Source: Candidatus Magasanikiibacteriota bacterium (GTDB taxonomy: Bacteria > Patescibacteriota > Patescibacteriia > Magasanikbacterales > GWA2-37-8). From it: a DNA stretch of 64,000 nt. The notes below the pieces were generated by a model that was given only the letters and a program-made list of their open reading frames with translations, made no database searches and was not told the origin of the DNA. The position numbers and the translations under genes are program-made. The stretch spans positions 287 through 64,286 of the forward strand of contig JAUSEN010000029.1 in assembly GCA_030650025.1 (NCBI GenBank), given 5' to 3'. Below, one piece after another: positions 1 through 12,633 of this stretch (position 1 is its first letter; the number at the start of each line of letters is the position of its first letter).

Positions 1-1
1 A

Positions 2-346
2 CGCGATCAGAATTTTTACAGCATTGAGTATTCTTGGCGTAAAGGCGAACATCCAACGCAGAGTAATTTTAATCCCGACTTCTTCCTGAAATTTGGCGAC
101 AATATCGTTGTTATTGAAATCAAAGCTGACGATGACGATTCGGACGAAAACAAAGCGAAGTTTCGTTGGGCAAAACAACATTTTGAAACGTTGAACGAAG
201 AATTGAAAAAGGATAAAATCAAACAGCGATACTTCTTCCATTTTTTGAGTCCGTCGAGCTATGCAGAATTTTCGGAATACGCGCTAGACGGCAGATTGTT
301 CAAGGGTGAGTTTCGTAGTTCGTTGGAAGATTTGCTCGACAAATAA
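2..346 (+). CDS. C-terminal fragment of a PD-(D/E)xK nuclease-domain protein, restriction-endonuclease-like. The 5' end lies outside the window.
   Basis: The frame is open from the window edge to TAA at 344-346. The translation ...NFNPDFFLKFGDNIVVIEIKADDDD... contains a PD-x(n)-E-x-K catalytic motif. It is absent from the ORF track because no start codon lies in the window. Confidence 0.4.
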   Translation, partial: RDQNFYSIEYSWRKGEHPTQSNFNPDFFLKFGDNIVVIEIKADDDDSDENKAKFRWAKQHFETLNEELKKDKIKQRYFFHFLSPSSYAEFSEYALDGRLFKGEFRSSLEDLLDK

Positions 347-788
347 TTGAATTGTCTGTTTTGATTTTAGAGCCCCGCCAAAAATCCCGCCCGAATTTCG
401 CCAAAAGAAAACAGTGGAGCAAATGGAAAATTCCTCCCCAAACCCCTCCTTTTCCATTTGCGACTTCCGAATTCAAAAACAAATCAGCCGAAGTTTTGGC
501 AAATCCTTTCCCCAAAAAATAGTTTTGCCAAAACTTCGTCCGCATTAGTCCCGCCACCTGCCCAGAAACTTCTAGGGCAGAACACCAAAGAAAAATGTCC
601 TTTCCATTTTCAAGAAAAATTTCACCCCCGCCAAATCAAAAAAGCAAGAGACATTTTTCTTTGGGGTTGCCGAGCGAAGCGAGGCAGTGGCGGAACGATA
701 CGAGCGTACAGGGCAGTTTCAAGCCACCACGCGCTCCGCGCGTGCGATTAGTCGGCATCAGGGTTGCTTTCAAAATACATTCGAACTT

Positions 789-796
789 TGTATAAT
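789..796 (+). promoter_or_regulatory. Extended -10 element (TGtATAAT) upstream of yidC
   Basis: tttgTATAATac lies 35 nt upstream of the ATG at 831. No good -35 sits at 17 bp spacing. Confidence 0.35.
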
Positions 797-830
797 ACAC
801 ACCGCTAGGCTTTTAATAAAAATCGTTTCT

Positions 831-1544
831 ATGTTTAACCTCATTTGGTCCGACTTCCTCTACCAGCCATTATTCAATGTTTTGATTTTTCTTTATAACA
901 CTATTGCCGGCCAAAATTTAGGCTGGGCCGTGGTGTGGTTAACAGTGCTACTGCGCGTGGCTTTATTGCCCCTTACTATTATTTCCGAATTTACCGAAGT
1001 ACGCCGCCAAAAAGCCGCCGTTGAGGCCGAGAAGGCAATTGTCGCCTATAAAAATGACCGCGTGGCCCAAAAAGAAATCGCGCGCAAAATCATGCGCAAG
1101 TATCACATTTCGCCGTGGGCCAAAGTTCTAATGCTTGGCATCCAGCTCTTGGTTTTAATTTTACTCTATCAGGTTTTTATTAGCGGCATCAGCGGCACGC
1201 GGATGGCTCGGACTTTATACCCAGGGGTGGACTACCCCGGCGCCATCAATGTTGATTTTTATGGTTTTAACATCGGCACCCCGCACGATATTTGGTGGAG
1301 CGGGATCTGCGCCATTTATTTGTTAGTATCTATTTATTTAGAACGGCGTAGCCGTCGCGGCTGGCAGCGCGCCGAGGTGTTTTATTGGATAAGTTTTCCG
1401 CTTTTCACTTTTGCCGCCCTCTGGTACCTGCCCATGGTAAAGTCGCTCTTTATTTTGACAACTATGGTGTTTTCTGATATAATCAGCCTTATAAGGAGCG
1501 CGATAAGATACGCCTTTAAGCCCGCCGCCGTTGCCAAGCATTAA
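831..1544 (+). CDS. yidC: Membrane protein insertase YidC/Oxa1 family (short form)
   Basis: MFNLIWSDFLYQPLFNVLIFLY...RKYHISPWAKVLMLGIQLLVLILLYQVF shows multiple TM segments with the YidC-type conserved core. The start was moved to the ATG at 831. The 687 start of the tracked ORF would add a non-hydrophobic N-extension overlapping a palindrome and the promoter. Confidence 0.7.
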   Translation: MFNLIWSDFLYQPLFNVLIFLYNTIAGQNLGWAVVWLTVLLRVALLPLTIISEFTEVRRQKAAVEAEKAIVAYKNDRVAQKEIARKIMRKYHISPWAKVLMLGIQLLVLILLYQVFISGISGTRMARTLYPGVDYPGAINVDFYGFNIGTPHDIWWSGICAIYLLVSIYLERRSRRGWQRAEVFYWISFPLFTFAALWYLPMVKSLFILTTMVFSDIISLIRSAIRYAFKPAAVAKH

Positions 1545-1561
1545 TTTTTCGCCATGTTATT

Positions 1562-2161
1562 ATGTCCACTGATTCTTTAGACAAAATAATGTATTCGTTC
1601 GTTGTGGACGATGTTCTCAAGGGTCTTTTTATTTATGTCCCGCCGGGTTATGTGGCTTGCGTCTATGATTTAGGCCGGGGCGTGCTTAAAAAAGTTTTAA
1701 CCCCCGGCCTCCACCTTAAAATTCCTTTTTGGCAAAAAGCCAAGCTGTTTAACGTCCAAACCCTCGAATATAGCATCTCGCGCCAGTTTAGCCTGGAGCA
1801 CGAACGGGCTCTTGGCGATATTCCCATTGCCGCGGTTACCCAAGAAGGCAAGCGCATCGGAATCGAGGGCACCATTCTCCTGCGCCTTGATATCCACCAG
1901 GTCCCGGCTATTTGGCAAACTATCGGCGAAGATTTTGTCGCCAAAATTGTTCGCCCGGCTATCCGGAGCCGCGTGCGCATGGTCTTTAGCCGTTTTAATT
2001 ATGCCGATATTGTGGGTGTCAGCCGCGCCGATGTTGAACACGAGCTCAAGAGCGAACTAGAACGCATTTTTTACTCCCGCGGTATTTTTGTAGAAAACGT
2101 CCTTTTAAGCGAAATCTCGCAGATTGCCGCCAGCGCTCCCCTCAAAGAAAAAGCCGAATAA
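1562..2161 (+). CDS. SPFH/band-7 (prohibitin/stomatin-like) domain protein
   Basis: An N-terminal hydrophobic segment is followed by ...PGYVACVYDLGRGVLKKVLTPGLHLKIPFWQKAKLFNVQT... and a C-terminal coiled region, typical of the SPFH fold. It sits immediately downstream of yidC. Confidence 0.55.
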   Translation: MSTDSLDKIMYSFVVDDVLKGLFIYVPPGYVACVYDLGRGVLKKVLTPGLHLKIPFWQKAKLFNVQTLEYSISRQFSLEHERALGDIPIAAVTQEGKRIGIEGTILLRLDIHQVPAIWQTIGEDFVAKIVRPAIRSRVRMVFSRFNYADIVGVSRADVEHELKSELERIFYSRGIFVENVLLSEISQIAASAPLKEKAE

Positions 2162-2179
2162 AATTGGTTTTCTTACCTC

Positions 2180-2208
2180 TTGACACCCATCTTCATCGTT
2201 GGTATATT
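2180..2208 (+). promoter_or_regulatory. Sigma-70-type promoter of hrcA: TTGACA, 17 bp spacer, TATATT
   Basis: TTGACA at 2180-2185, a 17-nt spacer (cccatcttcatcgttgg), then TATATT at 2203-2208. Confidence 0.6.
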
Positions 2209-2233
2209 ATCACTCATAAGTATAGAGTGATAA
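2207..2233 (+). promoter_or_regulatory. CIRCE-like HrcA operator: TTATCACTC, 9 nt spacer, GAGTGATAA
   Basis: A perfect 9-bp inverted repeat with a 9-nt spacer (ataagtata) overlaps the -10 and ends 2 nt before the hrcA ATG. It is a G-to-T variant of the canonical TTAGCACTC-N9-GAGTGCTAA. Confidence 0.7.
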
Positions 2234-2235
2234 CC

Positions 2236-2922
2236 ATGGAAACCAGGCAAGAACAATTACTCCAGCTGGTGATTGAAAACTATATTAAAACCGCCGAGCC
2301 GGTGGGTTCGCGTTTTTTAGTTACCGAAGCTGGTTTAGCGTGGAGCGAGGCCACGGTACGGAACGACCTGCGCGAACTCGAAGAGGCTGGTTATTTAACG
2401 CATCCGCACACTTCGGCCGGGCGCATCCCCACCACCAAAGGCTACCGCCATTATATTCAGAAACTTAATTTTTCCGGGCTGGAATTGCCCAAAAAAGAAT
2501 CCAGCGAATTGGAAAAAGCTTTTAAAGCCGAGGACGAATGGGAGGCGGCCTGCAAACAGCTCGCTAAAACAATGGTCGCGCTTTCTACTGAAACCGTGCT
2601 CCTCGCTTTTTCGTCCGAAAAAGTGTATTATACCGGCCTCGCGAGCTTGTTTCAAAAACCGGATTTTGGCGAGCAGAGCTTGGTGGTTGATGTGTCGGCT
2701 ATGTTTGACACGTTAGACGAAGTGTTGCCGGATTTTTTTAATATTGTTGCCGGTGAACCCAAGTATTTTTTGGGAGCGGAACACCCGTTTGGCGAAAAAC
2801 TAACGGTGCTCTCCACGCGTTTTGGGGAGGATGACCAGTCGCTTATCGCGCTCGTCGGCCCCCAGCGCATGGACTACAAGCACAATTGGGCTTTGCTAAA
2901 TAATATTTTGCAGTTTGTTTAG
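2236..2922 (+). CDS. hrcA: Heat-inducible transcription repressor HrcA (short form)
   Basis: METRQEQLLQLVIENYIKTAEPVGSRFLV is an HrcA-type N-terminal winged helix. The CIRCE operator lies immediately upstream and grpE/dnaK follow. The start is M25 of the tracked ORF. Confidence 0.75.
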   Translation: METRQEQLLQLVIENYIKTAEPVGSRFLVTEAGLAWSEATVRNDLRELEEAGYLTHPHTSAGRIPTTKGYRHYIQKLNFSGLELPKKESSELEKAFKAEDEWEAACKQLAKTMVALSTETVLLAFSSEKVYYTGLASLFQKPDFGEQSLVVDVSAMFDTLDEVLPDFFNIVAGEPKYFLGAEHPFGEKLTVLSTRFGEDDQSLIALVGPQRMDYKHNWALLNNILQFV

Positions 2923-2930
2923 AAATATTT

Positions 2931-3803
2931 ATGGACCAAGTGGAAAAAAAATACCCTATCATTGCCGTTGGCGCCCTCATTTATAATCAAGCGGGCAAGA
3001 TTCTTTTGGTGCGCGGGCCTAAGTTTGGCGATTTCTGGACAATCCCGGGCGGTAAAGTTGACCTTGGAGAAACTGTTGAACAGGCTCTGCGCCGCGAAAT
3101 TAAAGAAGAAATTAGCGTTGAAATTGGAAAGGTTGAGTTTGTGCAGTTTCAAGACGCGATCAATCCGCCCTCGTACCACGAACCCAAGCATTTTTTATTT
3201 ATAGACTTTCTCGCGGAATTAAAAAATGGCGAGCCGGCTGTTTCTAACGAAATTACGGAATTCATCTGGGTTGACGCCGCCACGGCGCGCCAAGATTTAA
3301 AAACTTCTCCGACTGTGGACAAATTGATTCAAGCCTATCTAGATAAAAGCAAACCAGCTGAAATTAAAAACGAAGATTATAAATTAAATTATCAGCGCGC
3401 CTTGGCGGATTATCAAAACTTAAAAAAAGAAACCGCCAGCCGCCGGGGGGAGTGGGCGCAATATTCCGAACAGATGATTCTGGAAGAATTTATTCCGGTG
3501 TATGATAATTTTAAAAAAGCCTATTGGCATAAACCCGAGATTGCGGGCGAGAGTGAGAAGCAATTTAAGCAGTGGGCGGACGGCATTGGTTTTATTCAAA
3601 AACAGTTTGGGGATATTTTAAAAGCGCACAATGTAATCGAAATAAAAACCGTGGGCGAAATGTTTGACCCTAAGTTTCACGAAACAGTTGGTGAAGACGC
3701 GGTGGAAGGCAAAACGCATGGCACAATCGTCAGAGAGGTGGAAGGAGGGTACACTATGGCTGGGCGGGTGATAAAAGTGGCGAAGGTGATTATTGCGAAA
3801 TGA
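2931..3803 (+). CDS. grpE: NUDIX hydrolase domain fused to nucleotide exchange factor GrpE
   Basis: Residues about 1-140 carry a Nudix box GGKVDLGETVEQALRREIKEEISV (GX5EX7REUXEEXGU). Residues about 150-290 form a GrpE coiled-coil (YQRALADYQNLKKE...IPVYDNFKKA) and a C-terminal beta domain (FDPKFHETVGED...GYTMAGRVIKVAKVII). It is a single uninterrupted frame. Confidence 0.7.
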   Translation: MDQVEKKYPIIAVGALIYNQAGKILLVRGPKFGDFWTIPGGKVDLGETVEQALRREIKEEISVEIGKVEFVQFQDAINPPSYHEPKHFLFIDFLAELKNGEPAVSNEITEFIWVDAATARQDLKTSPTVDKLIQAYLDKSKPAEIKNEDYKLNYQRALADYQNLKKETASRRGEWAQYSEQMILEEFIPVYDNFKKAYWHKPEIAGESEKQFKQWADGIGFIQKQFGDILKAHNVIEIKTVGEMFDPKFHETVGEDAVEGKTHGTIVREVEGGYTMAGRVIKVAKVIIAK

Positions 3804-3871
3804 TTTTTAGTTGTATGGAGTTCGATAAACACAACCCGCATCCATTTAAAAAATAATTATTTTAATTTTTT

Positions 3872-4540
3872 ATGCAAACCACTAAATATTATCACGTTAT
3901 TATCGCGCTTTTTAGCGTTTGTTTGGTCGTATCCAATATCATTGCCGTAAAAATTGGCAGTTTCCTGGGTTATTTCTTGCCTGTGGCGGTTATTTTATTC
4001 CCATTCACCTATATCTTGGGCGATGTTTTAACCGAAGTGTATGGCTACGCGGCCGCTCGCCGCGCTATTTGGACCGGCTTTTTCTGCAATTTAGTGGCGG
4101 TCATCGCCATTTGGTTGAGCATCAAAATTGTACCCGCGCCGTTTTTTGCCAATCAGCCCGCTTTTGCCGCTATTTTAGGGTTCACCCCGCGCTTACTAGT
4201 GGCTTCGTTTTTAGCTTACTTAGTTGGTCAGTTCGCTAATTCATATATTCTATCAAAATTAAAAATCAGAACCCAGGGTAAGCATCTGTGGGCGCGAACG
4301 GTTGGTTCTACTGTGGTTGGTGAAGGTTTGGACAGCCTGGTGTTCATTGTCCTGGCTTTTAGCGGTGTCTTGCCAAGTGTGGCTATCCCGACTTTGGTTT
4401 TAACGCAGTGGATTTTTAAAAGCGCGTTTGAAGTGGTGGCCACGCCATTTACCTATATTGTCGTGAATTATTTAAAACAGGCCGAAGGGTTAGATGTTTA
4501 CGATCATCAAACCAATTTTAATCCGGTGAAAATTAATTAA
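3872..4540 (+). CDS. Queuosine precursor transporter (YhhQ/DUF165 family)
   Basis: Polytopic membrane protein with ...VSNIIAVKIG...FPFTYILGDVLTEVYGY...RRAIWTGF..., the conserved YhhQ-family core. It sits immediately upstream of queF. Confidence 0.6.
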   Translation: MQTTKYYHVIIALFSVCLVVSNIIAVKIGSFLGYFLPVAVILFPFTYILGDVLTEVYGYAAARRAIWTGFFCNLVAVIAIWLSIKIVPAPFFANQPAFAAILGFTPRLLVASFLAYLVGQFANSYILSKLKIRTQGKHLWARTVGSTVVGEGLDSLVFIVLAFSGVLPSVAIPTLVLTQWIFKSAFEVVATPFTYIVVNYLKQAEGLDVYDHQTNFNPVKIN

Positions 4541-4578
4541 CAATGAACAAACAACAATTAACAAGTTGTTAATTTCTT

Positions 4579-4977
4579 ATGCCCACATCCAAACAGGACC
4601 TCTCGCAACTTACTGAACTTGGCAATAAAAAAGCCAAGCCCGCTCGCACGCTCGAAGCGTTTCCCAATCATGCCCCGGGCGATTTAGAGGTCAGTTTGCA
4701 TTGCAGAGAATTTACCTGCCGCTGCCCCTTAACGAACCAGCCAGATTATGCCACTATTGACATTGTGTATGTGCCAGATAAATTTGTAGTGGAGAGTAAG
4801 TCCCTGAAGCTGTATTTAGAAACCTATCGAGAAGAAGGCGTTTTTCACGAACATCTGGCCGTGGATATTGGCAGGGATTTCGTGAAGTTTATTAAACCCA
4901 AAAGCGTGAGCGTAAAAGTTAATTTTAATACGCGCGGCGGGATCGCGATCAGCGCGGAGTGGAAGAGTAAAAAGTAA
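4579..4977 (+). CDS. queF: NADPH-dependent 7-cyano-7-deazaguanine reductase QueF (unimodular type)
   Basis: The catalytic Cys lies in CPLTNQPDYA. The QueF motif E(S/L)K(S/A)hK(L/Y)(Y/F/W) is present as ESKSLKLYL. The length is about 130 aa. Confidence 0.8.
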   Translation: MPTSKQDLSQLTELGNKKAKPARTLEAFPNHAPGDLEVSLHCREFTCRCPLTNQPDYATIDIVYVPDKFVVESKSLKLYLETYREEGVFHEHLAVDIGRDFVKFIKPKSVSVKVNFNTRGGIAISAEWKSKK

Positions 4978-4987
4978 GCATATTACT

Positions 4988-5662
4988 ATGTCAGAGAGTA
5001 ATTTTCTTGCGAGGCATTGGAAAAAACTAGCGGCTGGTGTAGCGGCGCTCGGTATTACGGCGGGGGCTGTTGACATGAGCCGTTCACGGCGAAGCGAGGC
5101 AGACAGTGGTGATGCACAGGGCGAAGTCCACAAACCGGAAGTCCCCGACCAGGCAGCGAGAGATATGAAGGCGTTAGATAATGCAGGGCGTCTTCAAAAT
5201 GAGGAACGAGCCCGCGAACGGGACCAAGAAAAGATTGTAAATGTAAAAGCTGCGATTGACGCCATGTTTGCGCAATCACCGGTGGATAATACTCCGCATT
5301 ACGAAACACAAGAATTAAGTATAGCCGAGTTGAGGGCCGAAGGTTTAGAAGATTTTGCAAAAGTTGTAAATGAAGTGCCGAGTTTAAAAATTTTTGACGA
5401 CAGCATAGATGGGCCTGCTGTAACTTATTTAGATGATCAAGGTGGGCGATTTAAATTAGCGAATATTATGGTCGAAGACGATGGCAGTTTTACTCTAGAT
5501 GGCGGAAAATTTAACCGGGGACTTGCTGCGCAAATAAATGTGGATAGTTTAGATGGATTAAAATCTGTTTTGGAGGGAGTAAAAAGAAATTTTGTAACTG
5601 GCAGTTTAGAAGACGAGCAATATGATAGGGAACAAGAAAAATTAAGGAAATTACGTCAATAA
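4988..5662 (+). CDS. Hypothetical membrane-anchored acidic protein (module A, partner of a NYN protein)
   Basis: N-terminal hydrophobic anchor KKLAAGVAALGITAGAV, then a D/E/K/R-rich low-complexity body. It is a divergent paralog of the 6321-6962 ORF (anchors are similar; ARDMKALD...EERARERDQE vs PKDMREADA...EDKARGERAGE). Confidence 0.45.
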   Translation: MSESNFLARHWKKLAAGVAALGITAGAVDMSRSRRSEADSGDAQGEVHKPEVPDQAARDMKALDNAGRLQNEERARERDQEKIVNVKAAIDAMFAQSPVDNTPHYETQELSIAELRAEGLEDFAKVVNEVPSLKIFDDSIDGPAVTYLDDQGGRFKLANIMVEDDGSFTLDGGKFNRGLAAQINVDSLDGLKSVLEGVKRNFVTGSLEDEQYDREQEKLRKLRQ

Positions 5663-5702
5663 TAGTAATGAGTATAAAAAAGTGGAGTGATAAGAAATAA
5701 TT

Positions 5703-6209
5703 ATGATAGCGAGCCGAAAAAACAATTACGCGTTTATTGATAGCCAAAATTTAAACTTAAGCGTTCGGTCGCTTGGGTGGAAGTTAAATTTTGGCAGTTT
5801 TCGCGTTTATTTGCGTGAAAAATATTCTATTCAGCAAGCGTACCTATTTATTGGTTATCTACCAGGAAATCAGCATCTTTATACCGCCTTACAGATGGCC
5901 GGCTATATTTGTGTTTTTAAACCAACCTTAGAGCTACCAGACGGTACTGTAAAAGGCAATGTTGATGCCGAGTTGGTCCTTCACACCATGATACAATACA
6001 ATAATTTTGATAAAGCCCTGCTCGTTTCCGGCGATGGTGATTTCTTTTGTCTGGCGCAGTATTTGTTGGAACAAGATAAGTTGCTTAAAGTGTTAATTCC
6101 TAACCAGGCGCGATATTCAGGGTTGTTAAAACGCTTAAGTACACAACAAAATAACGTTTTTGATTTCATAAGTGAACTCCGGGTAAGGCTGGAATATCGT
6201 CCAAAATGA
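5703..6209 (+). CDS. NYN-domain (PIN-like RNase, LabA/NYN family) protein, module A
   Basis: AFIDSQNLNLS...KGNVDAELVLHTM...KALLVSGDGDFFCLAQYL carries the NYN acidic catalytic residues in the canonical order. Confidence 0.6.
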   Translation: MIASRKNNYAFIDSQNLNLSVRSLGWKLNFGSFRVYLREKYSIQQAYLFIGYLPGNQHLYTALQMAGYICVFKPTLELPDGTVKGNVDAELVLHTMIQYNNFDKALLVSGDGDFFCLAQYLLEQDKLLKVLIPNQARYSGLLKRLSTQQNNVFDFISELRVRLEYRPK

Positions 6210-6320
6210 AAAAGGCTCCAAGCGGTACAAAACCCGCTAAGAACCTAGATCGTCGTGATAAAACTAGTATAACATACTATATTAATTTGTCAAGGCCGGG
6301 CGCGAATAAACCTCAAAACT

Positions 6321-6962
6321 ATGTTGGAAGGCAAGAAAAAATGGATTGCTGCGGCGGTCGGCCTGGCCGGTTTAGTTGGCGTTGAAGCCGGCAGACGAGC
6401 CGAAAAAAAGACCCCGCCAAGAGTAACGGACGAATCAGCCGATGTAGCGAAGCGTCCCAAAGATATGCGCGAAGCAGATGCCATTGCCGAGGCACGGCGA
6501 GTGTTGGATGAAGATAAGGCCAGAGGAGAAAGGGCTGGAGAAAATTACCAAGAAGACTATGAGCAATATTGGCTTGAGAATATGGAAGCGAAGTTTGATG
6601 TGGCACACGCAGAATATCCAATTTTGTATAAAATATTAGAAAAAAGTCCCTATGATTTTACCAAAGACACTCTTTTTGCTGACCCACCACCCAGGTTGTA
6701 TTTATGGAAAAAAGTTGGCGAATTTGAGGGCACGCCACGAGCACTGGAAGGAGTTTTTGTTTTACGAAATGCAGATGGCACCTTGGGGTATGAGATAATT
6801 CCTCAAAATAATCTTTACAAACCAGACGGTCAGCATGTGATATTCACCGCAGAGCAGCTTTTACAGGAGCTTCAAGCAAGAGAATCTGTTGAAAGTCAAC
6901 TAGTTGAAGATAGGGGTAGCACTGATGAGCGCGAGGCTAGCGAAGAAAATAAAGAAGAATAA
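6321..6962 (+). CDS. Hypothetical membrane-anchored acidic protein (module B, paralog of 4988-5662)
   Basis: N-terminal anchor KKKWIAAAVGLAGLVGVEAG, then a charged, E-rich body with an acidic C-terminal tail. It has the same architecture and partial sequence similarity to module A. Confidence 0.45.
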   Translation: MLEGKKKWIAAAVGLAGLVGVEAGRRAEKKTPPRVTDESADVAKRPKDMREADAIAEARRVLDEDKARGERAGENYQEDYEQYWLENMEAKFDVAHAEYPILYKILEKSPYDFTKDTLFADPPPRLYLWKKVGEFEGTPRALEGVFVLRNADGTLGYEIIPQNNLYKPDGQHVIFTAEQLLQELQARESVESQLVEDRGSTDEREASEENKEE

Positions 6963-7001
6963 AATTTTTTAGGCATTTTTTATAAATTTATTTACACACT
7001 A

Positions 7002-7127
7002 TGTCCAAAGTTCTCGGAATCGATCTCGGCACCGCTAACTCCTGCATGGCCATTATCGAAGGCGTTGTGGCAATTAATTATACACTTGACAACGTTATGG
7101 CGACGTGTTATATTAGTAGTAACTAAA
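7002..7127 (+). pseudogene. Relic of the dnaK 5' end (first 21 codons conserved, then unrelated sequence to a stop)
   Basis: atgtccaaagttctcggaatcgatctcggcaccgctaactcctgcatggccattatcgaaggc encodes [21 protein letters not shown], versus [21 protein letters not shown] for the resident DnaK at 7882. Many synonymous third-position differences are GC-richer. Similarity ends after codon 21 and a stop falls at 7125-7127. Confidence 0.7.
7086..7114 (+). promoter_or_regulatory. Sigma-70-type promoter: TTGACA, 17 bp spacer, TATATT, inside the dnaK relic and upstream of NYN gene B
   Basis: TTGACA at 7086-7091, a 17-nt spacer (acgttatggcgacgtgt), then TATATT at 7109-7114. Confidence 0.45.
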
Positions 7128-7170
7128 ACCACCCACCCTGCCCCGTAAGGGGCCCGGTGGGGTTTTATTT
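7127..7170 (+). terminator. GC-rich stem-loop with a GNRA tetraloop followed by a T-run (terminator-like or 5'-leader structure)
   Basis: GCCCC-GTAA-GGGGC sits at 7140-7153 with extended pairing (ccaccc.../...ggtggg), followed by ttttatttt at 7162-7170. It lies between the promoter at 7086 and the NYN-B ATG at 7184. Confidence 0.4.
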
Positions 7171-7183
7171 TAGAGCAAGTTTT

Positions 7184-7741
7184 ATGGCAGAAACAAAAAG
7201 GCGAGCGGTGGTATTATTTGACGGTAGCAATTTTTATTATAAAATGCGTGATCTTAAGATTGGTAATTTAAGCAATTTTGATTATCGTGGTTTATCCGAG
7301 TGGTTAGCGCGGGATAGGGAATTGGTAGCAGTTGGGTATTACATCGGAGTGGTGCGGGCGCAATTGAACGACGTAAAAGGGCAAAAATTACGTTGGGCGC
7401 AAAGAAATTTGTTTAATCGCTTGAATGCTCAAAAGGTTGATGTCCATAAAGGTTATTTAATGAAAAATGATGGCGTGTATCACGAGAAAGGCGTGGATGT
7501 TAAAATCGCGACGGATTTATTGGTGGGCGCTTATGAAAATTTGTATGACGACGCGATCGTAATTTCCTCGGATACGGATTTAATACCGGCGTTTAGCAAA
7601 GTAAAACAGCTTGGCAAGGGCGTAGAGTACATCGGCTTTGGTCATCAGCCCACCCTGGCGTTGCAGAAGTTTTCCACGATCTCACGCCTGTTAGTTTTGG
7701 ACGAGTTAAAGAAGTTTTGTACAGAAGAAAATAAAAAATGA
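7184..7741 (+). CDS. NYN-domain (PIN-like RNase) protein, module B
   Basis: MAETKRRAVVLFDGSNFYYK...KGVDVKIATDLLVGAY...DAIVISSDTDLIPAF is the NYN/LabA-like catalytic core. The start is the ATG at 7184. The GTG at 7157 used in the ORF track lies inside the hairpin. Confidence 0.6.
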   Translation: MAETKRRAVVLFDGSNFYYKMRDLKIGNLSNFDYRGLSEWLARDRELVAVGYYIGVVRAQLNDVKGQKLRWAQRNLFNRLNAQKVDVHKGYLMKNDGVYHEKGVDVKIATDLLVGAYENLYDDAIVISSDTDLIPAFSKVKQLGKGVEYIGFGHQPTLALQKFSTISRLLVLDELKKFCTEENKK

Positions 7742-7771
7742 TTTTTGTTAATTACTAATCTTTCACACACT

Positions 7772-7852
7772 ATGTCCAAAGTATTAGGCATTGACCTCGG
7801 CCCGCCTGCGCTCGCGAGAGCTACGGCGAGGCGAAGCACAACTAATTCTTAA
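7772..7852 (+). pseudogene. Second relic of the dnaK 5' end (10 codons conserved)
   Basis: atgtccaaagtattaggcattgacctcggc encodes [10 protein letters not shown], then diverges ([16 protein letters not shown]). It shares an identical 18-nt stretch, acacactatgtccaaagt, with relic 1 that includes 7 nt upstream of the ATG. Confidence 0.65.
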
Positions 7853-7881
7853 TTTATTTACTTTTAATTTATTACAAAATT

Positions 7882-9795
7882 ATGTCTAAAGTTCTGGGTA
7901 TAGATTTGGGAACAACAAACTCCTGCATGGCCATTATTGAGGGTGGCACGCCCAAGGTGTTAGAAAATAAAGAAGGGGCGCGCACCACGCCCTCTATTGT
8001 CGCGATTTCAAAAGCCGGCGAGCGGTTGGTGGGGCTCTTGGCCAAGCGCCAGGCGGTAACTAATCCGGAAAATACGCTGTTTTCCATCAAGCGTTTAATC
8101 GGCCGCAAATGGGAAGATTCCGAAGTCCAGCGCGACCTTAAGCTGATGCCGTACAAAATCGTCAAAAGCGGGGAAGGCGTTAAAATTTCTATGGGTGGCA
8201 AAGAACACACTCCCGAAGAAATTTCGGCGATGATACTCGGCAAAATGAAAGCCGATGCCGAAGAGCGTTTGGGCGAACCAATTACCGATGCCGTAATTAC
8301 CGTGCCGGCGTATTTTGACGATGCCCAGCGCCAGGCCACCAAAAATGCCGGGGAAATCGCGGGTTTAAACGTACTGCGCATTATCAACGAACCGACCGCG
8401 GCCGCGCTGGCCTACGGGTTTGATAAAAAGAAAGACGAAAAAATTGTGGTCTACGATCTCGGGGGCGGTACGTTTGACGTATCGGTTTTGGAAGTAAGCG
8501 CGGATTCAGTTCAAGTTTTATCTACCAATGGCGACACCCACCTCGGCGGCGATGACTTTGACCAAATCTTAATTCGTTGGATAATTGATGAGTTTAAACG
8601 CCAAGAAGGGATTGATCTCGGCAATGATAAACTCTCCTTGCAACGCATTAAAGAAGCGGCTGAGAAAGCCAAAATAGAACTCTCCACCGCGCAAGAGAGT
8701 GAAATCAATCAGCCGTTTATCACTTCGGATGCTAACGGCCCCAAACACTTGGTGATGAAATTGACGCGCGCCAAGCTGGAAGAATTGGTGGGCGGACTGG
8801 TAGAAAAAACTTTTGGCCCGGTGAAACAAGCTTTGAGCGATGCCAAATTATCGTCTGCTGATATGAATGAAGTGGTAATGGTGGGCGGAATGACGCGTAT
8901 GCCCTTGGTACTCCAAAGCGTGGAAAAATTCTTCAATAAAAAACCAAACATTACCGTGAATCCGGACGAAGTGGTGGCGGTTGGCGCTGGAGTGCAGGGC
9001 GGCGTGTTAAAGGGCGATGTCAAAGACGTGCTCTTGCTGGACGTAACGCCGTTGTCTCTCGGCATTGAGACCATGGGCAGTGTGATGACCAAACTGATTG
9101 AGAAAAATACCACCATTCCAACTTCAAAATCTCAAGTATTCTCCACGGCCGCCGAAAATCAGCCGAGCGTGGAAATCCATGTTCTCCAAGGAGAAAGGCC
9201 CATGGCTCCGGATAACAAAACTCTCGGCCGGTTTATTCTGGACGGCATTCCGCCGGCCCCGCGCGGCGTGCCGCAAGTGGAAGTGAGTTTTGACATTGAC
9301 GCCAACGGCATCTTGAGTGTTAAGGCCAAAGACAAAGCCACCAGTAAAGAGCAGTCCATCCGCATTGAGGGCTCGAGCGGCCTCTCTAAAGAAGAAGTGG
9401 AGCGCATGAAAAAAGACGCCGAAGCCCATGCCGAAGAAGACAAGAAAAAGCAGGAGTTAATTGAGGCCAAGAATATCGCCGATACCATGGTGTATACTAC
9501 CGAAAAAATGATGAAAGACGTGGAGGAAAAGAAAATCACGTTGACTGATGATGAAAAGAAAAACGTTGCCGAGGGTCTGGTGTGGGTTAAAGACGTTAAA
9601 GACAAGGACGATTTAGAACTAATCAAAAAAGCTTCTGAAGCTTTGTCTAAATCCGCGCAAGCTGTTGGCATGAAGATGTACCAGGAAGAGCAGAAGAAGG
9701 GCCCAGCTAGCGGTGCCGCTGGCAGCCAGCCTGAAGGCGAAAAACCAAACGAAGGGCCAATTGAGGGTGAAGTGGTGGATGAGAAAAAATCTTAA
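7882..9795 (+). CDS. dnaK: Molecular chaperone DnaK (Hsp70)
   Basis: 637 aa with the full Hsp70 signatures [16 protein letters not shown] and [11 protein letters not shown], plus a C-terminal acidic tail. Confidence 0.95.
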
Positions 9796-9806
9796 ACCAC
9801 ACTATT

Positions 9807-10283
9807 ATGTCAGAAATATTTACTCCAGAACAAGAGACAAACGAGTTCCTGCAACGATTCCGGGCGTACATGATAAAAGTAATCGAGGAAACAAACAAAA
9901 CCGGGCCTGGCCATTTTGCGGAGATCAGCGACAGCAAGGAAGAGTATGTCAAGAAGTTTGGCCACAGCGAGATGACCGCAATTTTTTATCTGGCCGGAAT
10001 TTTGCGCGCCTTATCGGCCGACTCAATTGCGGCAACCGGCGTGCAGCATGTTGAGGTTTTAGTTCGGTCCGCCAGCCGCGGCGCGGATGGTTGTGAAAAA
10101 TTATTTGCGTCTTGGTATCGTACAGTGCTTACCCCTCTTACCCAGCTGGGCGATGGAAAAGGCGGATATCTGCCCTGGGAAAATTCGGAGAATCCAGAAG
10201 ATAGCATTTTATTTTTGGTGAACGAAGCCAAGCAGAGGTTGTTGCTAGATGAATTGCCAGAGACAAAAATTATTGAAAAATAA
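9807..10283 (+). CDS. Hypothetical protein inserted between dnaK and dnaJ
   Basis: 158-aa ORF in tight tandem (11-nt gap after dnaK, 15 nt before dnaJ). I recognise no motif. Confidence 0.4.
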   Translation: MSEIFTPEQETNEFLQRFRAYMIKVIEETNKTGPGHFAEISDSKEEYVKKFGHSEMTAIFYLAGILRALSADSIAATGVQHVEVLVRSASRGADGCEKLFASWYRTVLTPLTQLGDGKGGYLPWENSENPEDSILFLVNEAKQRLLLDELPETKIIEK

Positions 10284-10298
10284 CAGACTGAATTTAAA

Positions 10299-11411
10299 AT
10301 GTCCAAAGATTATTATAAATTACTCGGCATAGACAAAAATGCCACCACTGACGAAATAAAAAAAGCCTTTAAAAGGCTGGCTCTTCAGTTTCATCCCGAC
10401 CGCCCGGGCGGAGACGAAAAAAAATTCAAAGAAATTAACGAGGCTTACCAAGTGTTAAGTAATTCGGATAAGCGCGCTAAATACGACCAATTTGGCTCGG
10501 ATTTTGAACAGCAAGGCGGCTTTGGCGGCGGGGCGGGCTGGGAAGATTTTATGCGCGCCGCGCGGGGCGGCCAGGGCGGTGGAAATTCCCACTTTGATTT
10601 TGGCGATTTGGACTTGGGCGATTTATTTGGCGGCGCCTTCGGCGGCGGGGCCGCCTCTGGTCGTCGCGGGCGACCTTCGGCGAGCCGAGGGCGGGATATC
10701 CAAGTTGATGTGGAAGTAGACTTTAAAGAAGCGGCGTTTGGCGTGGAGCGAGAGCTTAGTTTGCGTAAACAAAGCGCCTGCGATGTTTGCCGTGGACACG
10801 GGGGCGAACCAGGTAGCAAACTAGATACTTGTCCCACTTGTAAAGGCCAGGGCCAAGTAATGCAAGTCCAGCGGACATTTTTAGGCGCTATGCAGACTGT
10901 GGTCGCCTGTACGAATTGCGAAGGGCGCGGTCAGAAGCCAGAAAAAAAATGCAAACATTGTGGGGGGTCGGGAGTGCACGCTAAAAATACCAGCGTTAAA
11001 ATAAAAATCCCTGGCGGAATTGATAATGGTCAGGCTATTAAACTAACTGGCCACGGTGAAGCCGCGCCGCATAATGGAGGCGTCGGCGATTTATACGTGC
11101 GTGTCCATATTAGGCCCCATAAAAATTTTACGCGCGAGGGTTTTGATGTTCATAGCCATATTGAAATTAGTTTTGCCGAAGCGGTTTTGGGAGCGCATGT
11201 TAAAATCGAAACGATCGACGGCCCGGCCGAGTTAAAAATTCCCGAAGGCACCGAAGCCGGCCAAGTTATTCGGCTCAAAAATAAAGGCGTGCCGGAACTG
11301 GGGAGGCCTTCCGCGCGCGGCGACCACTATGTCCATGTTAAATTGCGCGTTCCCAAAAAATTGAGCAAAGCGGCGCGACAGGCGCTGGAAAATATTAAAA
11401 ACGAGCTTTAA
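10299..11411 (+). CDS. dnaJ: Molecular chaperone DnaJ (Hsp40, type I)
   Basis: J domain (DYYKLLGIDKNATTDEIKKAFKRLALQFHPDR), a G/F-rich linker, four CxxCxGxG zinc-finger repeats and a C-terminal domain. Confidence 0.95.
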   Translation: MSKDYYKLLGIDKNATTDEIKKAFKRLALQFHPDRPGGDEKKFKEINEAYQVLSNSDKRAKYDQFGSDFEQQGGFGGGAGWEDFMRAARGGQGGGNSHFDFGDLDLGDLFGGAFGGGAASGRRGRPSASRGRDIQVDVEVDFKEAAFGVERELSLRKQSACDVCRGHGGEPGSKLDTCPTCKGQGQVMQVQRTFLGAMQTVVACTNCEGRGQKPEKKCKHCGGSGVHAKNTSVKIKIPGGIDNGQAIKLTGHGEAAPHNGGVGDLYVRVHIRPHKNFTREGFDVHSHIEISFAEAVLGAHVKIETIDGPAELKIPEGTEAGQVIRLKNKGVPELGRPSARGDHYVHVKLRVPKKLSKAARQALENIKNEL

Positions 11412-11415
11412 CAAT

Positions 11416-12633
11416 ATGCGGAAGCAAATTTTTGGAGTTTTATTCTTAACAGTTTTTGGTCTAACATTTTTCTTATCCAGTACCGCCGCCGCGGTCGCGA
11501 GCGCCAATCAAATAAATTTTTCCAAAATAATTTCCGGCTTGCCGGCTCGCCTTAAATTGTATGACTCGGCCGTCATAGCCGGTTCAACGCGCGTTGTGAC
11601 GTATAAAGAAGCGCCGCTGTCTCCGGCCGTGGCCTATCGCGATAATATCAAAACTAGCCAATTGCTCGCCATTTGGAACCGTCTGCTAAAAAGTGGCTTA
11701 ACCAGGCGTTCTAAATTCACGGTTGAACAAAATGGCAGAGAGGTAATTTACCGCGTTAAATTAAGGCTCACTTCGGCGCAAGCCAATGAATTTATCAAAC
11801 TCTACTGGCCGTTTATAGATATCAACGGTTTGACGGCCGCCCAACTTAAAACTTTTAAGCCTAGAGTACGCGGCATTACTTATGCCGAGGTTCAGGTATT
11901 TATTTCTGGTGTAACTAGTTTGCCAACTGGCCTCAAACTGACATGGGTAGTACAGATGGACAAGAAAAAACCAGCGACAGTTCAAAAGGTATCATCATTT
12001 ATTAGTTATTTTAAATTTCCCCAGACTACGCCTCCACCGGCCGCCGCGCCTGCCGCCACCTTTTCAGCCACCACTTCCATTATTAATGTTTTAGCTCCTC
12101 TCAAACAAATCGTCTCGGAAAGCAAAGTAGCCTTTTCTACTACTTCTACTTTTAACAATACTTCTGTGCCCGAGTCTGACGCGCCTCCTCTTTCATCTGT
12201 CATTGTTCAGGCGCCCTCTGGCGCCATGAATTTTAGGGGTGAGGGTGGAGTTACCGCTTCACAAGTCGCGCACCTTGATTCCATTGTTAATCGCGATCAA
12301 CAACGCCTTAACGACCTTGAGGCCATTAAACAAGCCCTGCAATTTTTTTATAAAGATCAAAATTATTATCCTCAAGCCGTTAAAATCAAACTAGGTTCCG
12401 CCGGTTATGCCTGTCTTAATAGTGACGGCTTCAACCAGGCGGATTGCCCTTATCCATACCTTCTGGCCGTTCCCAAAGATCCTTTAGATAACTCGTTTAG
12501 CTATGAGTACAGCGTGGTTTATAATCAAAATAATCTGGCCACAGCGTACCTGGTTCTCGCTAAGCTAGAAGGCCAAACTGATTCTCTTTCCGGATCAATT
12601 AAACTTACTCCGAGTGGCGTAGTAAAAAACTAA
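11416..12633 (+). CDS. Secreted protein with a Sec-type signal peptide. The C-terminal region resembles a pseudopilin (GspG-like) globular domain.
   Basis: N-terminal FGVLFLTVFGLTFFLSSTAAAVASA. The C-terminus ...DCPYPYLLAVPKDPLDNSFSYEYSVVYNQNNLATAYLVLAKLEG recalls the PKDP...Y-x-Y signature of pseudopilins. There is no prepilin cleavage motif. Confidence 0.35.
   Translation: MRKQIFGVLFLTVFGLTFFLSSTAAAVASANQINFSKIISGLPARLKLYDSAVIAGSTRVVTYKEAPLSPAVAYRDNIKTSQLLAIWNRLLKSGLTRRSKFTVEQNGREVIYRVKLRLTSAQANEFIKLYWPFIDINGLTAAQLKTFKPRVRGITYAEVQVFISGVTSLPTGLKLTWVVQMDKKKPATVQKVSSFISYFKFPQTTPPPAAAPAATFSATTSIINVLAPLKQIVSESKVAFSTTSTFNNTSVPESDAPPLSSVIVQAPSGAMNFRGEGGVTASQVAHLDSIVNRDQQRLNDLEAIKQALQFFYKDQNYYPQAVKIKLGSAGYACLNSDGFNQADCPYPYLLAVPKDPLDNSFSYEYSVVYNQNNLATAYLVLAKLEGQTDSLSGSIKLTPSGVVKN

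Follow-up and report, generated by a model that had tools for sequence, protein, structure and literature searches.

Why does a bacterial chromosome carry partial copies of the beginning of dnaK in front of the intact gene? The question is raised by a 64,000-nt stretch of a Candidatus Magasanikiibacteriota genome (assembly GCA_030650025.1, contig JAUSEN010000029.1, positions 287 to 64,286, forward strand), here called the window. In this window grpE ends at position 3803 and dnaK starts at 7882, and two truncated dnaK starts, relic 1 and relic 2, lie in the gap between them, one on each side of NYN2 (7184-7741), a gene for a LabA/NYN-family nuclease similar to HEC-09. All genes and elements of the locus described below are on the plus strand unless stated otherwise. 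Comparison with related loci and contigs (labelled L001-L105) leads us to favour, with moderate confidence, the view that relics are once-functional dnaK starts, presumably without function now, which were stranded when recombination at the 5' end of the gene brought in segments that end in a dnaK start of their own.

Copies of the dnaK start in front of dnaK

Both relics announced by the original prediction are real, and their coordinates were refined to 7001-7066 (relic 1, codons 1-22) and 7772-7801 (relic 2, codons 1-10). Relic 1 is identical to the resident dnaK at 51 of 66 nt and encodes a single amino-acid change, T12A. Relic 2 shares 20 of 30 nt with the resident; all 10 differences are synonymous, and its reading frame continues into a GC-rich hairpin. 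An 18-nt stretch, ACACACTATGTCCAAAGT, is identical in the two relics, as had been noted before.

To estimate how unusual such copies are, 7946 candidate ATG starts in the window and related loci (about 1.4 Mb) were searched for copies of their own start, at least five codons long and in frame, located upstream. Such copies were found at dnaK in five loci. Remaining cases were one internally repetitive protein, one artefact of an N-gap and two chance matches of five residues. Upstream copies of the dnaK start are more than chance.

The metagenomic source of the contig leaves room for an assembly chimera between co-occurring strains, as repeated segments of 30-66 nt can confuse assembly graphs. 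Yet a contig from an independent assembly (Logan, SRR13727527), reached through exact-protein look-up of QueF, is 100% identical to the window over positions 776-8340 (7565 nt); the same look-up of NYN2 and DnaK returned no record. An orthologous relic-NYN-dnaK layout is present in L094, which comes from another sample, and the same architecture occurs in at least 15 assemblies from different studies. The Logan contig and the L094 layout rule out a mis-join of the relics, and the chance that strains were fused is practically negligible.

The relics had further been claimed not to be simple local duplicates of the resident start, and their affinities bear this out, since their alleles are nearer to functional starts of other lineages. 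Relic 2 agrees with the functional dnaK start of L095 at 29 of 30 nt and with that of L094 at 25 of 30, against only 20 of 30 for its own resident. For relic 1 the figures are 49 of 57 nt (L094 resident) and 46 of 57 (own resident). The similarity extends beyond coding sequence. Relic 1 is preceded by a dnaK upstream region of native type (6942-7000) that accounts for 40-58 nt, and in BLAST comparisons the relic together with 15-58 nt of upstream sequence aligns with native dnaK starts of the relic-free loci L007, L009, L023, L004 and L005; an orthologous relic of 57 nt is found in L094. Relic 2 and the AT-rich region in front of it (7742-7771) align with the working start of L094, of which relic 2 is the positional orthologue (L094 538-1172 corresponds to window 7181-7801). 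It is thus reasonable to suppose that relic 2 was the working start before a small inserted unit, described below, arrived.

Two other origins of the copies were considered and rejected. A diversity-generating retroelement does not suit the differences between relic and resident, which involve all four bases, and no reverse transcriptase is among the Pfam matches listed. An intron was rejected on sequence grounds.

A recurrent unit at dnaK codon 10

Relic 2 is followed by a GC-rich palindromic element (hairpin H, 7802-7845) and an AT-rich spacer (7846-7881), which together with resident codons 1-10 (7882-7911) make up a recurrent inserted unit. Its layout is a copy of the dnaK start of 5-11 codons, a GC-rich hairpin, an AT-rich spacer of about 45 nt and the real dnaK. 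Six of 80 species-level genomes contain the unit (L001, L003, L010, L011, L039 and L050), and a pattern scan of metagenomes retrieved nine further contigs (L081, L084, L085, L086, L088, L089, L090, L091 and L092). This amounts to at least 15 unit-bearing genomes or contigs of the Candidate Phyla Radiation (CPR), a count that includes L089, a repeat of the L011 sequence, and the less certain five-codon case of L086. Whatever the lineage or hairpin type, all full-length relics stop at codon 10-11; the short forms MSKVLG and MSKVLE can be explained by deletions between repeated Leu-Gly codons. In L011 the whole grpE-dnaK gap measures 128 nt, so the unit is present there without any cargo. Both relics had been thought to mark the junctions of inserted DNA. 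Relic 1 does abut the NYN2 module; relic 2 does not mark the NYN2 junction but is part of the separate, cargo-independent unit.

Presence and absence of the unit can be compared between two close genomes. L091 and L023 are 95-99% identical over kilobases, and the dnaK start of L023 is plain. L091 is longer by 104 nt, placed precisely behind codon 10: a hairpin, a spacer and a further dnaK beginning from ATG to codon 10. The relic of L091 matches the native start of L023 at 28 of 30 nt (upstream region 94%), whereas its resident codons 1-10 match at only 23 of 30 and include a TCA-to-AGC serine switch. From codon 11 on, identity is mostly 26-30 nt per block of 30, and 94.7% over the whole gene. 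The L091 spacer does not copy the native upstream region. In outgroups L016 and L095 the unit is absent, and the L091 unit groups with those of L081 and L085, whose DnaK are only 73-76% identical over residues 11-190; type of unit and host lineage are at odds. This allele pattern, together with absence from the outgroups and grouping with distant L081 and L085, favours horizontal gain of a discrete unit by L091.

A purely local event would need no foreign DNA: tandem duplication of the dnaK start by slippage or unequal crossing-over, then divergence and later insertion of hairpin and genes. Relic and resident are indeed identical over 29-33 nt in L088, L090 and L092. In L088 (4624-4920, reverse strand) and L090 (196-492), two units stand in tandem before dnaK and look duplicated, with spacers 82% alike, and the spacer is similar to the native upstream regions of some relatives, L002 and L094 among them. 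On the other hand, even where relic and resident agree throughout their coding parts, the sequences in front of them are unrelated. Between L091 and its sister genome, 7 of the 30 nt in resident codons 1-10 differ, against about 5% in the remainder of the gene, and the L091 spacer is, as mentioned, no copy of the native upstream region. Finally, the window relics are nearer to alleles of other lineages than to their resident. We consider local duplication quite improbable.

The tandem cases are informative also with regard to order. In L088 and L090 damage is greater in the outer relic, which is interrupted by a hairpin; in the window, outer relic 1 has one amino-acid change and inner relic 2 none. 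Both observations fit successive insertions at the working start. L088 and L090 are 97% identical over 1.4 kb, yet unrelated hairpins are located between identical flanks. Six of the first 18 nt of their outer relic differ, with an AGC/TCT switch among these exclusively synonymous changes. When resident codons 1-10 of unit-bearing Magasanik genomes were clustered, no clear signal emerged, and a sliding-window search for recombination breakpoints in the window dnaK was of no help, since synonymous divergence from every relative is saturated.

One hairpin type is common to eight leaders. An outer-stem pair covaries, and stems show compensatory changes (CCGCC/GGCGG, CCUCC/GGAGG, CCCACC/GGUGGG). 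A covariance model of this type, R1, assigns 44.2 bits to hairpin H, in line with its fold and covarying stem. Since the model was trained on leader copies, concentration of its matches at the dnaK leader has to be read with that in mind. R1 nevertheless matches at unrelated sites, with 20-33 bits; matches were also obtained in L029, L046 and L064. In L015 (8153-8203) an R1-type element lies in frame within dnaK and adds GPASAEASAGK to the protein. Further copies are located in C-terminal tails of DnaK in L045 (11787-11832) and L061 (11779-11830), in the hrcA-grpE spacer of L043 and beside tRNA genes in L002 and L061. Hairpins start after GGNACC or GGNATC, a sequence that agrees with dnaK codons 10-11 and also, at other sites, with the left end of the element. 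Judging by these related copies at unrelated genomic sites, the hairpin appears to be a dispersed small palindromic element.

The DnaK tail of the window (9690-9720) contains a similar palindromic stretch, possibly the same element. With filters off, a single R1-type copy was detected in the 64-kb window. A high-copy repeat of the genome was therefore rejected, as one copy per 64 kb was accompanied only by weak extra matches that looked like noise; a scan for GC islands was uninformative owing to high coding GC. In L018 (about 9944-9990), a possible decayed relic, VNKVLGLDLKS, lacks an ATG and lies 57 nt upstream of dnaK. Its codons make the 5' arm of an AT-rich hairpin (GTTTAGACTT...AAGTCTAAAC), which hints that hairpins can arise from relic sequence via template switching.

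GC-rich palindromes (here about 30-45 nt) at scattered sites, including a site in frame within a gene, are reminiscent of Rickettsia palindromic elements and of repetitive extragenic palindromic (REP) or miniature inverted-repeat transposable element (MITE)-like repeats. Rickettsia palindromic elements occur inside genes. In comparison with them, our hairpin is much shorter, and no terminal inverted repeats with target duplications were seen. It is also set apart from these kinds of repeats by its single copy in the window and its strong concentration at the dnaK leader.

Conservation of the unit admits another interpretation, that of a functional leader. The mimic of the dnaK start would then be a translated short upstream frame which, with hairpin and spacer, regulates dnaK in cis, for example by translation-dependent unfolding, processing or insulation from upstream transcription, being kept by selection and easily lost between the repeats. 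In all of the at least 15 leaders, the ATG and codons 1-5 or 1-10 are intact and differences are almost all synonymous; the hairpin is maintained through compensatory changes. The leader is better conserved than synonymous sites: those of the window and L003 are 83% identical over 115 nt, though synonymous sites of dnaK are saturated (third-position identity 0.41-0.52). Moreover, the layout is specific to dnaK among the 7946 starts, and dnaK has no consensus promoter or controlling inverted repeat of chaperone expression (CIRCE) of its own.

Several features do not agree with such a role. The leader is restricted to about 8% of species-level relatives (6/80) rather than being clade-wide, it is present or absent in genomes as close as L091 and L023, and its type disagrees with host lineage. 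The hairpin has neither a U-tract nor alternative pairing, and the short frame varies in length and in position of its stop. An unrelated hairpin has been swapped in between L088 and L090, hairpins of the same family occur at unrelated places, even in frame within dnaK, and Rfam has no match. A functional leader hence seems rather unlikely to us.

NYN modules and the variable grpE-dnaK gap

NYN2, which relic 1 abuts, matches the candidate defence family HEC-09 at 8e-18. The NYN2 family yielded more than 1000 matches and is conserved across CPR; the best 120 are 56-99% identical. The closest relative of the locus found, L094 (about 80% nucleotide identity, NYN2 91%), has a 57-nt relic followed by a stop and abutting NYN2, a 47-nt spacer and intact dnaK; a second relic is missing.

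The NYN gene is preceded by a conserved leader (7073-7183) which starts about 7 nt past the end of dnaK homology in relic 1. It contains a promoter at 7086-7114, 20 nt past that end, and then a terminator-like hairpin with a U-run at 7125-7170. The original prediction placed this promoter inside relic 1. As a consensus match (11/12) it is real; it belongs, however, to the NYN leader and not to the relic. The leader of the window is 83% identical to L006 9172-9267 and homologous to L003 1768-1885. The same leader was found in L095 (about 5880-5990), L099, L101, L103 and L105, in the last four within the 130 nt that precede the NYN genes. Common to NYN/LabA-family genes of several CPR lineages, it is composed of a TTGACA-type promoter, CTAAAACC, a hairpin with GNRA-like loop and a U-run just ahead of the start codon. 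Compensatory changes affect 6 of 11 pairs of the hairpin. The promoter spacer of L003, L006 and L095 contains a third segment, GGTGGG-like and complementary to the 5' arm, which could serve as antiterminator. No Rfam match was obtained for the NYN leader. A search of window positions 1-12000 against Rfam (E<=1) likewise gave nothing relevant, and one literature search on palindromic in-frame repeats in CPR yielded nothing to the point; on these grounds none of the three, small unit, palindromic element or NYN leader, seems to have been described before.

Several NYN modules are flanked by direct repeats. The repeat measures 65 nt in L094 (91% identity), 99 nt in L101 (96%; -261..-163 and +1..+99 around the NYN gene 2501-3064), at least 48 nt in L099, 29 nt in L020 (97%, intergenic target) and possibly 12 nt in L003; none was seen in six other NYN loci. 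L099 shares the tail of the upstream gene with L101, and the repeat of both is the 3' end of this gene, which ends in ...LALGITN.DL.KI..G(S)LE. NYN modules thus look like mobile cassettes that insert with target duplication at several kinds of sites.

An alternative, put forward in the original prediction, is site-specific integration, in which a tyrosine or serine recombinase, now elsewhere or lost, would recognise an attB core in the dnaK start and leave relics as attL-type scars. In its favour, the small unit is joined at codon 10-11 in different lineages and with different hairpin types. Like integrative elements at tRNA genes, the inserted DNA brings a replacement for the gene end, and the hairpin abuts the junction, loosely resembling an integron attC site. 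Nevertheless, the Pfam matches listed for 61 open reading frames (ORFs) of the window, 110 aa or longer, and for 39 ORFs from gaps of relatives include no integrase or transposase, in agreement with the earlier statement that the window has none. A scan of the window for tRNA genes was negative, so a tRNA-type integration site is lacking. Repeats measure 12, 29, 30, 48, 57-66 or 99 nt and involve four targets, dnaK codon 10, dnaK codon 19-22, the 3' end of another gene and intergenic sequence; such variation is a misfit with one recombinase using one core site. Nor are the repeats identical cores, as the above comparisons of both relics with the resident (20/30 and 51/66 nt) show, a constant junction being a property of the small unit only. 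The smallest unit, about 75-105 nt, is moreover too small for a double-stranded circle. We hold integration by a dedicated recombinase to be very doubtful. The relics had been interpreted as att-site or homology scars of successive integration: former starts, allele pattern and recurrence speak for homology scars of successive insertions, lack of a listed recombinase and variable repeats against att sites.

The grpE-dnaK junction is a hotspot in related genomes too. In the 71 of 80 species-level loci where this gap could be measured, its length lies between 19 and 3435 nt; that between dnaK and dnaJ is equally variable (6-8166 nt). About 20 gene families occupy the grpE-dnaK gap, most commonly Hsp20, besides NYN, 23S-rRNA-IVP, GNAT, Fic, GIY-YIG, DUF4145, DUF4268 and HD proteins. 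Genes yhhQ and queF, which precede dnaK in the window, do so also in L001, L003 and L010. The canonical order hrcA-grpE-dnaK-dnaJ had been assumed as starting state; genes in the gaps of relatives argue that a bare operon of this kind is not the local ancestral state. NYN genes are located directly upstream of dnaK in the window (twice), L094, L003, L095, L004, L006 and L091; in L004 and L006 these are homologues of NYN1, the first NYN gene of the window. L091 (8672-9852) and L023 (8844-9959) differ in cargo upstream of dnaK, an NYN gene with two small ORFs in the former and a DUF4268 gene in the latter.

In the window, the locus begins with the hrcA promoter (2180-2233; TTGACA-17-TATATT with TG, overlapping a CIRCE-like inverted repeat), followed by hrcA (2236-2922; Pfam HrcA) and a gene for a NUDIX-GrpE fusion protein (2931-3803; Pfam NUDIX 1.6e-21, GrpE 1e-35). 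The N-terminal NUDIX hydrolase domain on GrpE is not confined to the window, as tblastn matches cover nearly all 290 residues in L001, L004, L015, L016, L017, L018 and L046. The gap contains genes for a Vut_1/YhhQ-type queuosine-precursor transporter (3872-4540) and QueF (4579-4977), then the cargo of a first block: an unknown protein with hydrophobic N-terminus (4988-5662), NYN1 (5703-6209) and a second unknown protein (6321-6962). Boundaries and gene content of the gap agree, in coordinates and Pfam assignments, with what had been predicted. The proposed grouping into two modules, each of an anchor protein and an NYN RNase, does not hold, since this pairing is not conserved: the two unknown proteins are marginally alike (E=0.001), and NYN homologues elsewhere have different upstream neighbours.

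In the spacer between NYN1 and the second unknown protein, a strong consensus promoter (6266-6293, minus strand, 11/12 with extended -10) points leftwards. It faces the 3' end of the opposite-strand NYN gene, has no obvious ORF downstream and could drive an antisense RNA. Intact dnaK (7882-9795) is followed by a 158-aa ORF without family match (9807-10283), located in the dnaK-dnaJ gap, and by dnaJ (10299-11411). Closest relatives of DnaK, 79-86% identical, are labelled Candidatus Magasanikbacteria or Patescibacteria, which places the window in CPR. The remainder of the window (11416-64000) is mostly a long same-strand run of genes for glycosyltransferases, sugar epimerases/dehydratases, aminotransferases, NeuB and Wzy_C, and looks like a large surface-glycan cluster.

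As regards regulation, the only CIRCE-like site of the window, TTATCACTC-N9-GAGTGATAA at 2207-2233, is at the hrcA promoter. A second one near dnaK was not found, which is consistent with the earlier remark that the CIRCE-controlled promoter is remote from dnaK. Neither was a consensus promoter or terminator found in 7742-7881. With no promoter or CIRCE site nearby, dnaK probably owes its transcription to read-through that starts at the NYN2 promoter or still further upstream.

Proposed stranding of dnaK starts by recombination

We return to stranding of former dnaK starts, the explanation that we favour. Anatomy of the locus, recurrence of the unit, its presence or absence in near-identical genomes and the discord between unit type and host lineage are observations; how the DNA recombined, in which direction each event went and that relics have no function are inferred. 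In the older event, common to the window and L094, an NYN module (promoter, structured leader and ORF) with a spacer and a dnaK start would have entered at about codon 19-22, leaving relic 1. In the second, common to L003-type genomes, a unit of about 80-110 nt (palindrome, AT-rich spacer, recoded codons 1-10) would have entered after codon 10, leaving relic 2. The first event is shared with L094 and the second with L003, neither of which has both, and this points to recombination between lineages.

Incoming DNA may have paired with the highly conserved 5' coding sequence of dnaK as anchor. Its far end could have been joined illegitimately, that is by homology-facilitated illegitimate recombination, or through Campbell-type single crossover of a circular intermediate. 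Later spread to naive genomes might be due to ordinary homologous recombination, with the relic as left homology arm. Such displacement is in accordance with a conserved anchor gene beside variable cargo, and truncated copies of the anchor are kept in the window, in L094 and in the at least 15 leaders. Assignment of the inner start to a donor and of the outer one to a recipient is suggested by the alleles of L091 and L023 and by the window relics, which are nearer to L094 and L095 residents, although the direction, gain or loss, is not proven by them.

Some observations weigh against this explanation. Every clear relic retains its ATG and at least the first five codons, and substitutions among relics are overwhelmingly synonymous (relic 1 and the L094 relic differ by 7 synonymous and 2 non-synonymous changes, rough P of about 0.003), a pattern that might alternatively be due to selection on a short upstream frame that is translated. 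The sole composition-blind search gave one possibly decayed relic, that of L018; other searches favoured intact starts. The 83% identity of the window and L003 leaders fits recent transfer but equally functional constraint. A genome with an R1-type hairpin at about -45 and without relic, the expected original donor, was not found. Had L023 instead lost the unit through recombination between its two 30-nt repeats, the comparison with L091 would look no different, and such a loss is possible. Anchor sequences of the presumed donors and recipients, furthermore, share no more than about 75-80% identity, a low value for RecA-dependent recombination.

More tentatively, the unit of about 100 nt might be a self-compensating mobile mini-cassette specialised for dnaK codon 10/11, which breaks into an essential, highly conserved gene yet repairs it with the start that it carries, spreads via the stranded host start across CPR families and possibly gives dnaK a new, insulated 5' control region, with NYN modules using the same route at several conserved genes. 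We put this forward as a possibility that is open to considerable doubt.

Tips of genes are known to be displaced in a similar manner elsewhere. At type VI secretion system (T6SS) and Rhs loci, sequential displacement leaves orphan gene ends and has been explained by homology-facilitated illegitimate recombination (Kirchberger et al. 2017, PMC5361080, with de Vries & Wackernagel 2002 and Jackson et al. 2009 cited therein). As in arrays of Rhs, contact-dependent inhibition (CDI) and T6SS genes, a conserved gene segment anchors incoming DNA, the old end is pushed aside and not deleted, successive events leave ordered orphan ends with cargo, and a dedicated recombinase is unnecessary. The dnaK case is a mirror image: it is the 5' end of an essential chaperone gene that moves upstream, whereas in those arrays a variable 3' tip moves downstream. 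Cargo does not consist of toxin-immunity pairs, the commonest insert is gene-less and about 100 nt long, and the host belongs to CPR.

A second parallel is offered by integrative elements of the tRNA type. Islands and prophages that target tRNA genes insert at a gene end and carry a replacement for the interrupted part. Here too, insertion restores the gene with element-borne sequence, and a partial duplicate remains at the other junction. Unlike these elements, the dnaK inserts come with no integrase that we found, no constant identical core and no tRNA; their target is a 5' coding end and repeat lengths vary. With leader-peptide attenuators, the unit shares a short frame (translation of which is putative here) and a stable hairpin just upstream of the regulated gene. 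It departs from them in the lack of U-tract and alternative pairing, in a peptide that copies the N-terminus of DnaK, and in patchy distribution with signs of horizontal movement.

Dissociation of dnaK from the sole CIRCE/HrcA control site makes its mode of regulation a question that can be tested, should the relic-hairpin leader prove functional. Two unannotated sequence families, an in-frame-inserting palindromic element and a structured leader of NYN nucleases, are possible markers. The genomes of CPR bacteria are tiny, a genetic system for these organisms is lacking, and their gene exchange is little understood. If the proposed explanation is true, the 5' end of dnaK, among the most conserved coding sequences known, would be a portable landing pad for foreign DNA that requires no recombinase. 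Essential genes would then tolerate insertions that bring their own replacement start, and stranded starts would record the order of past acquisitions.

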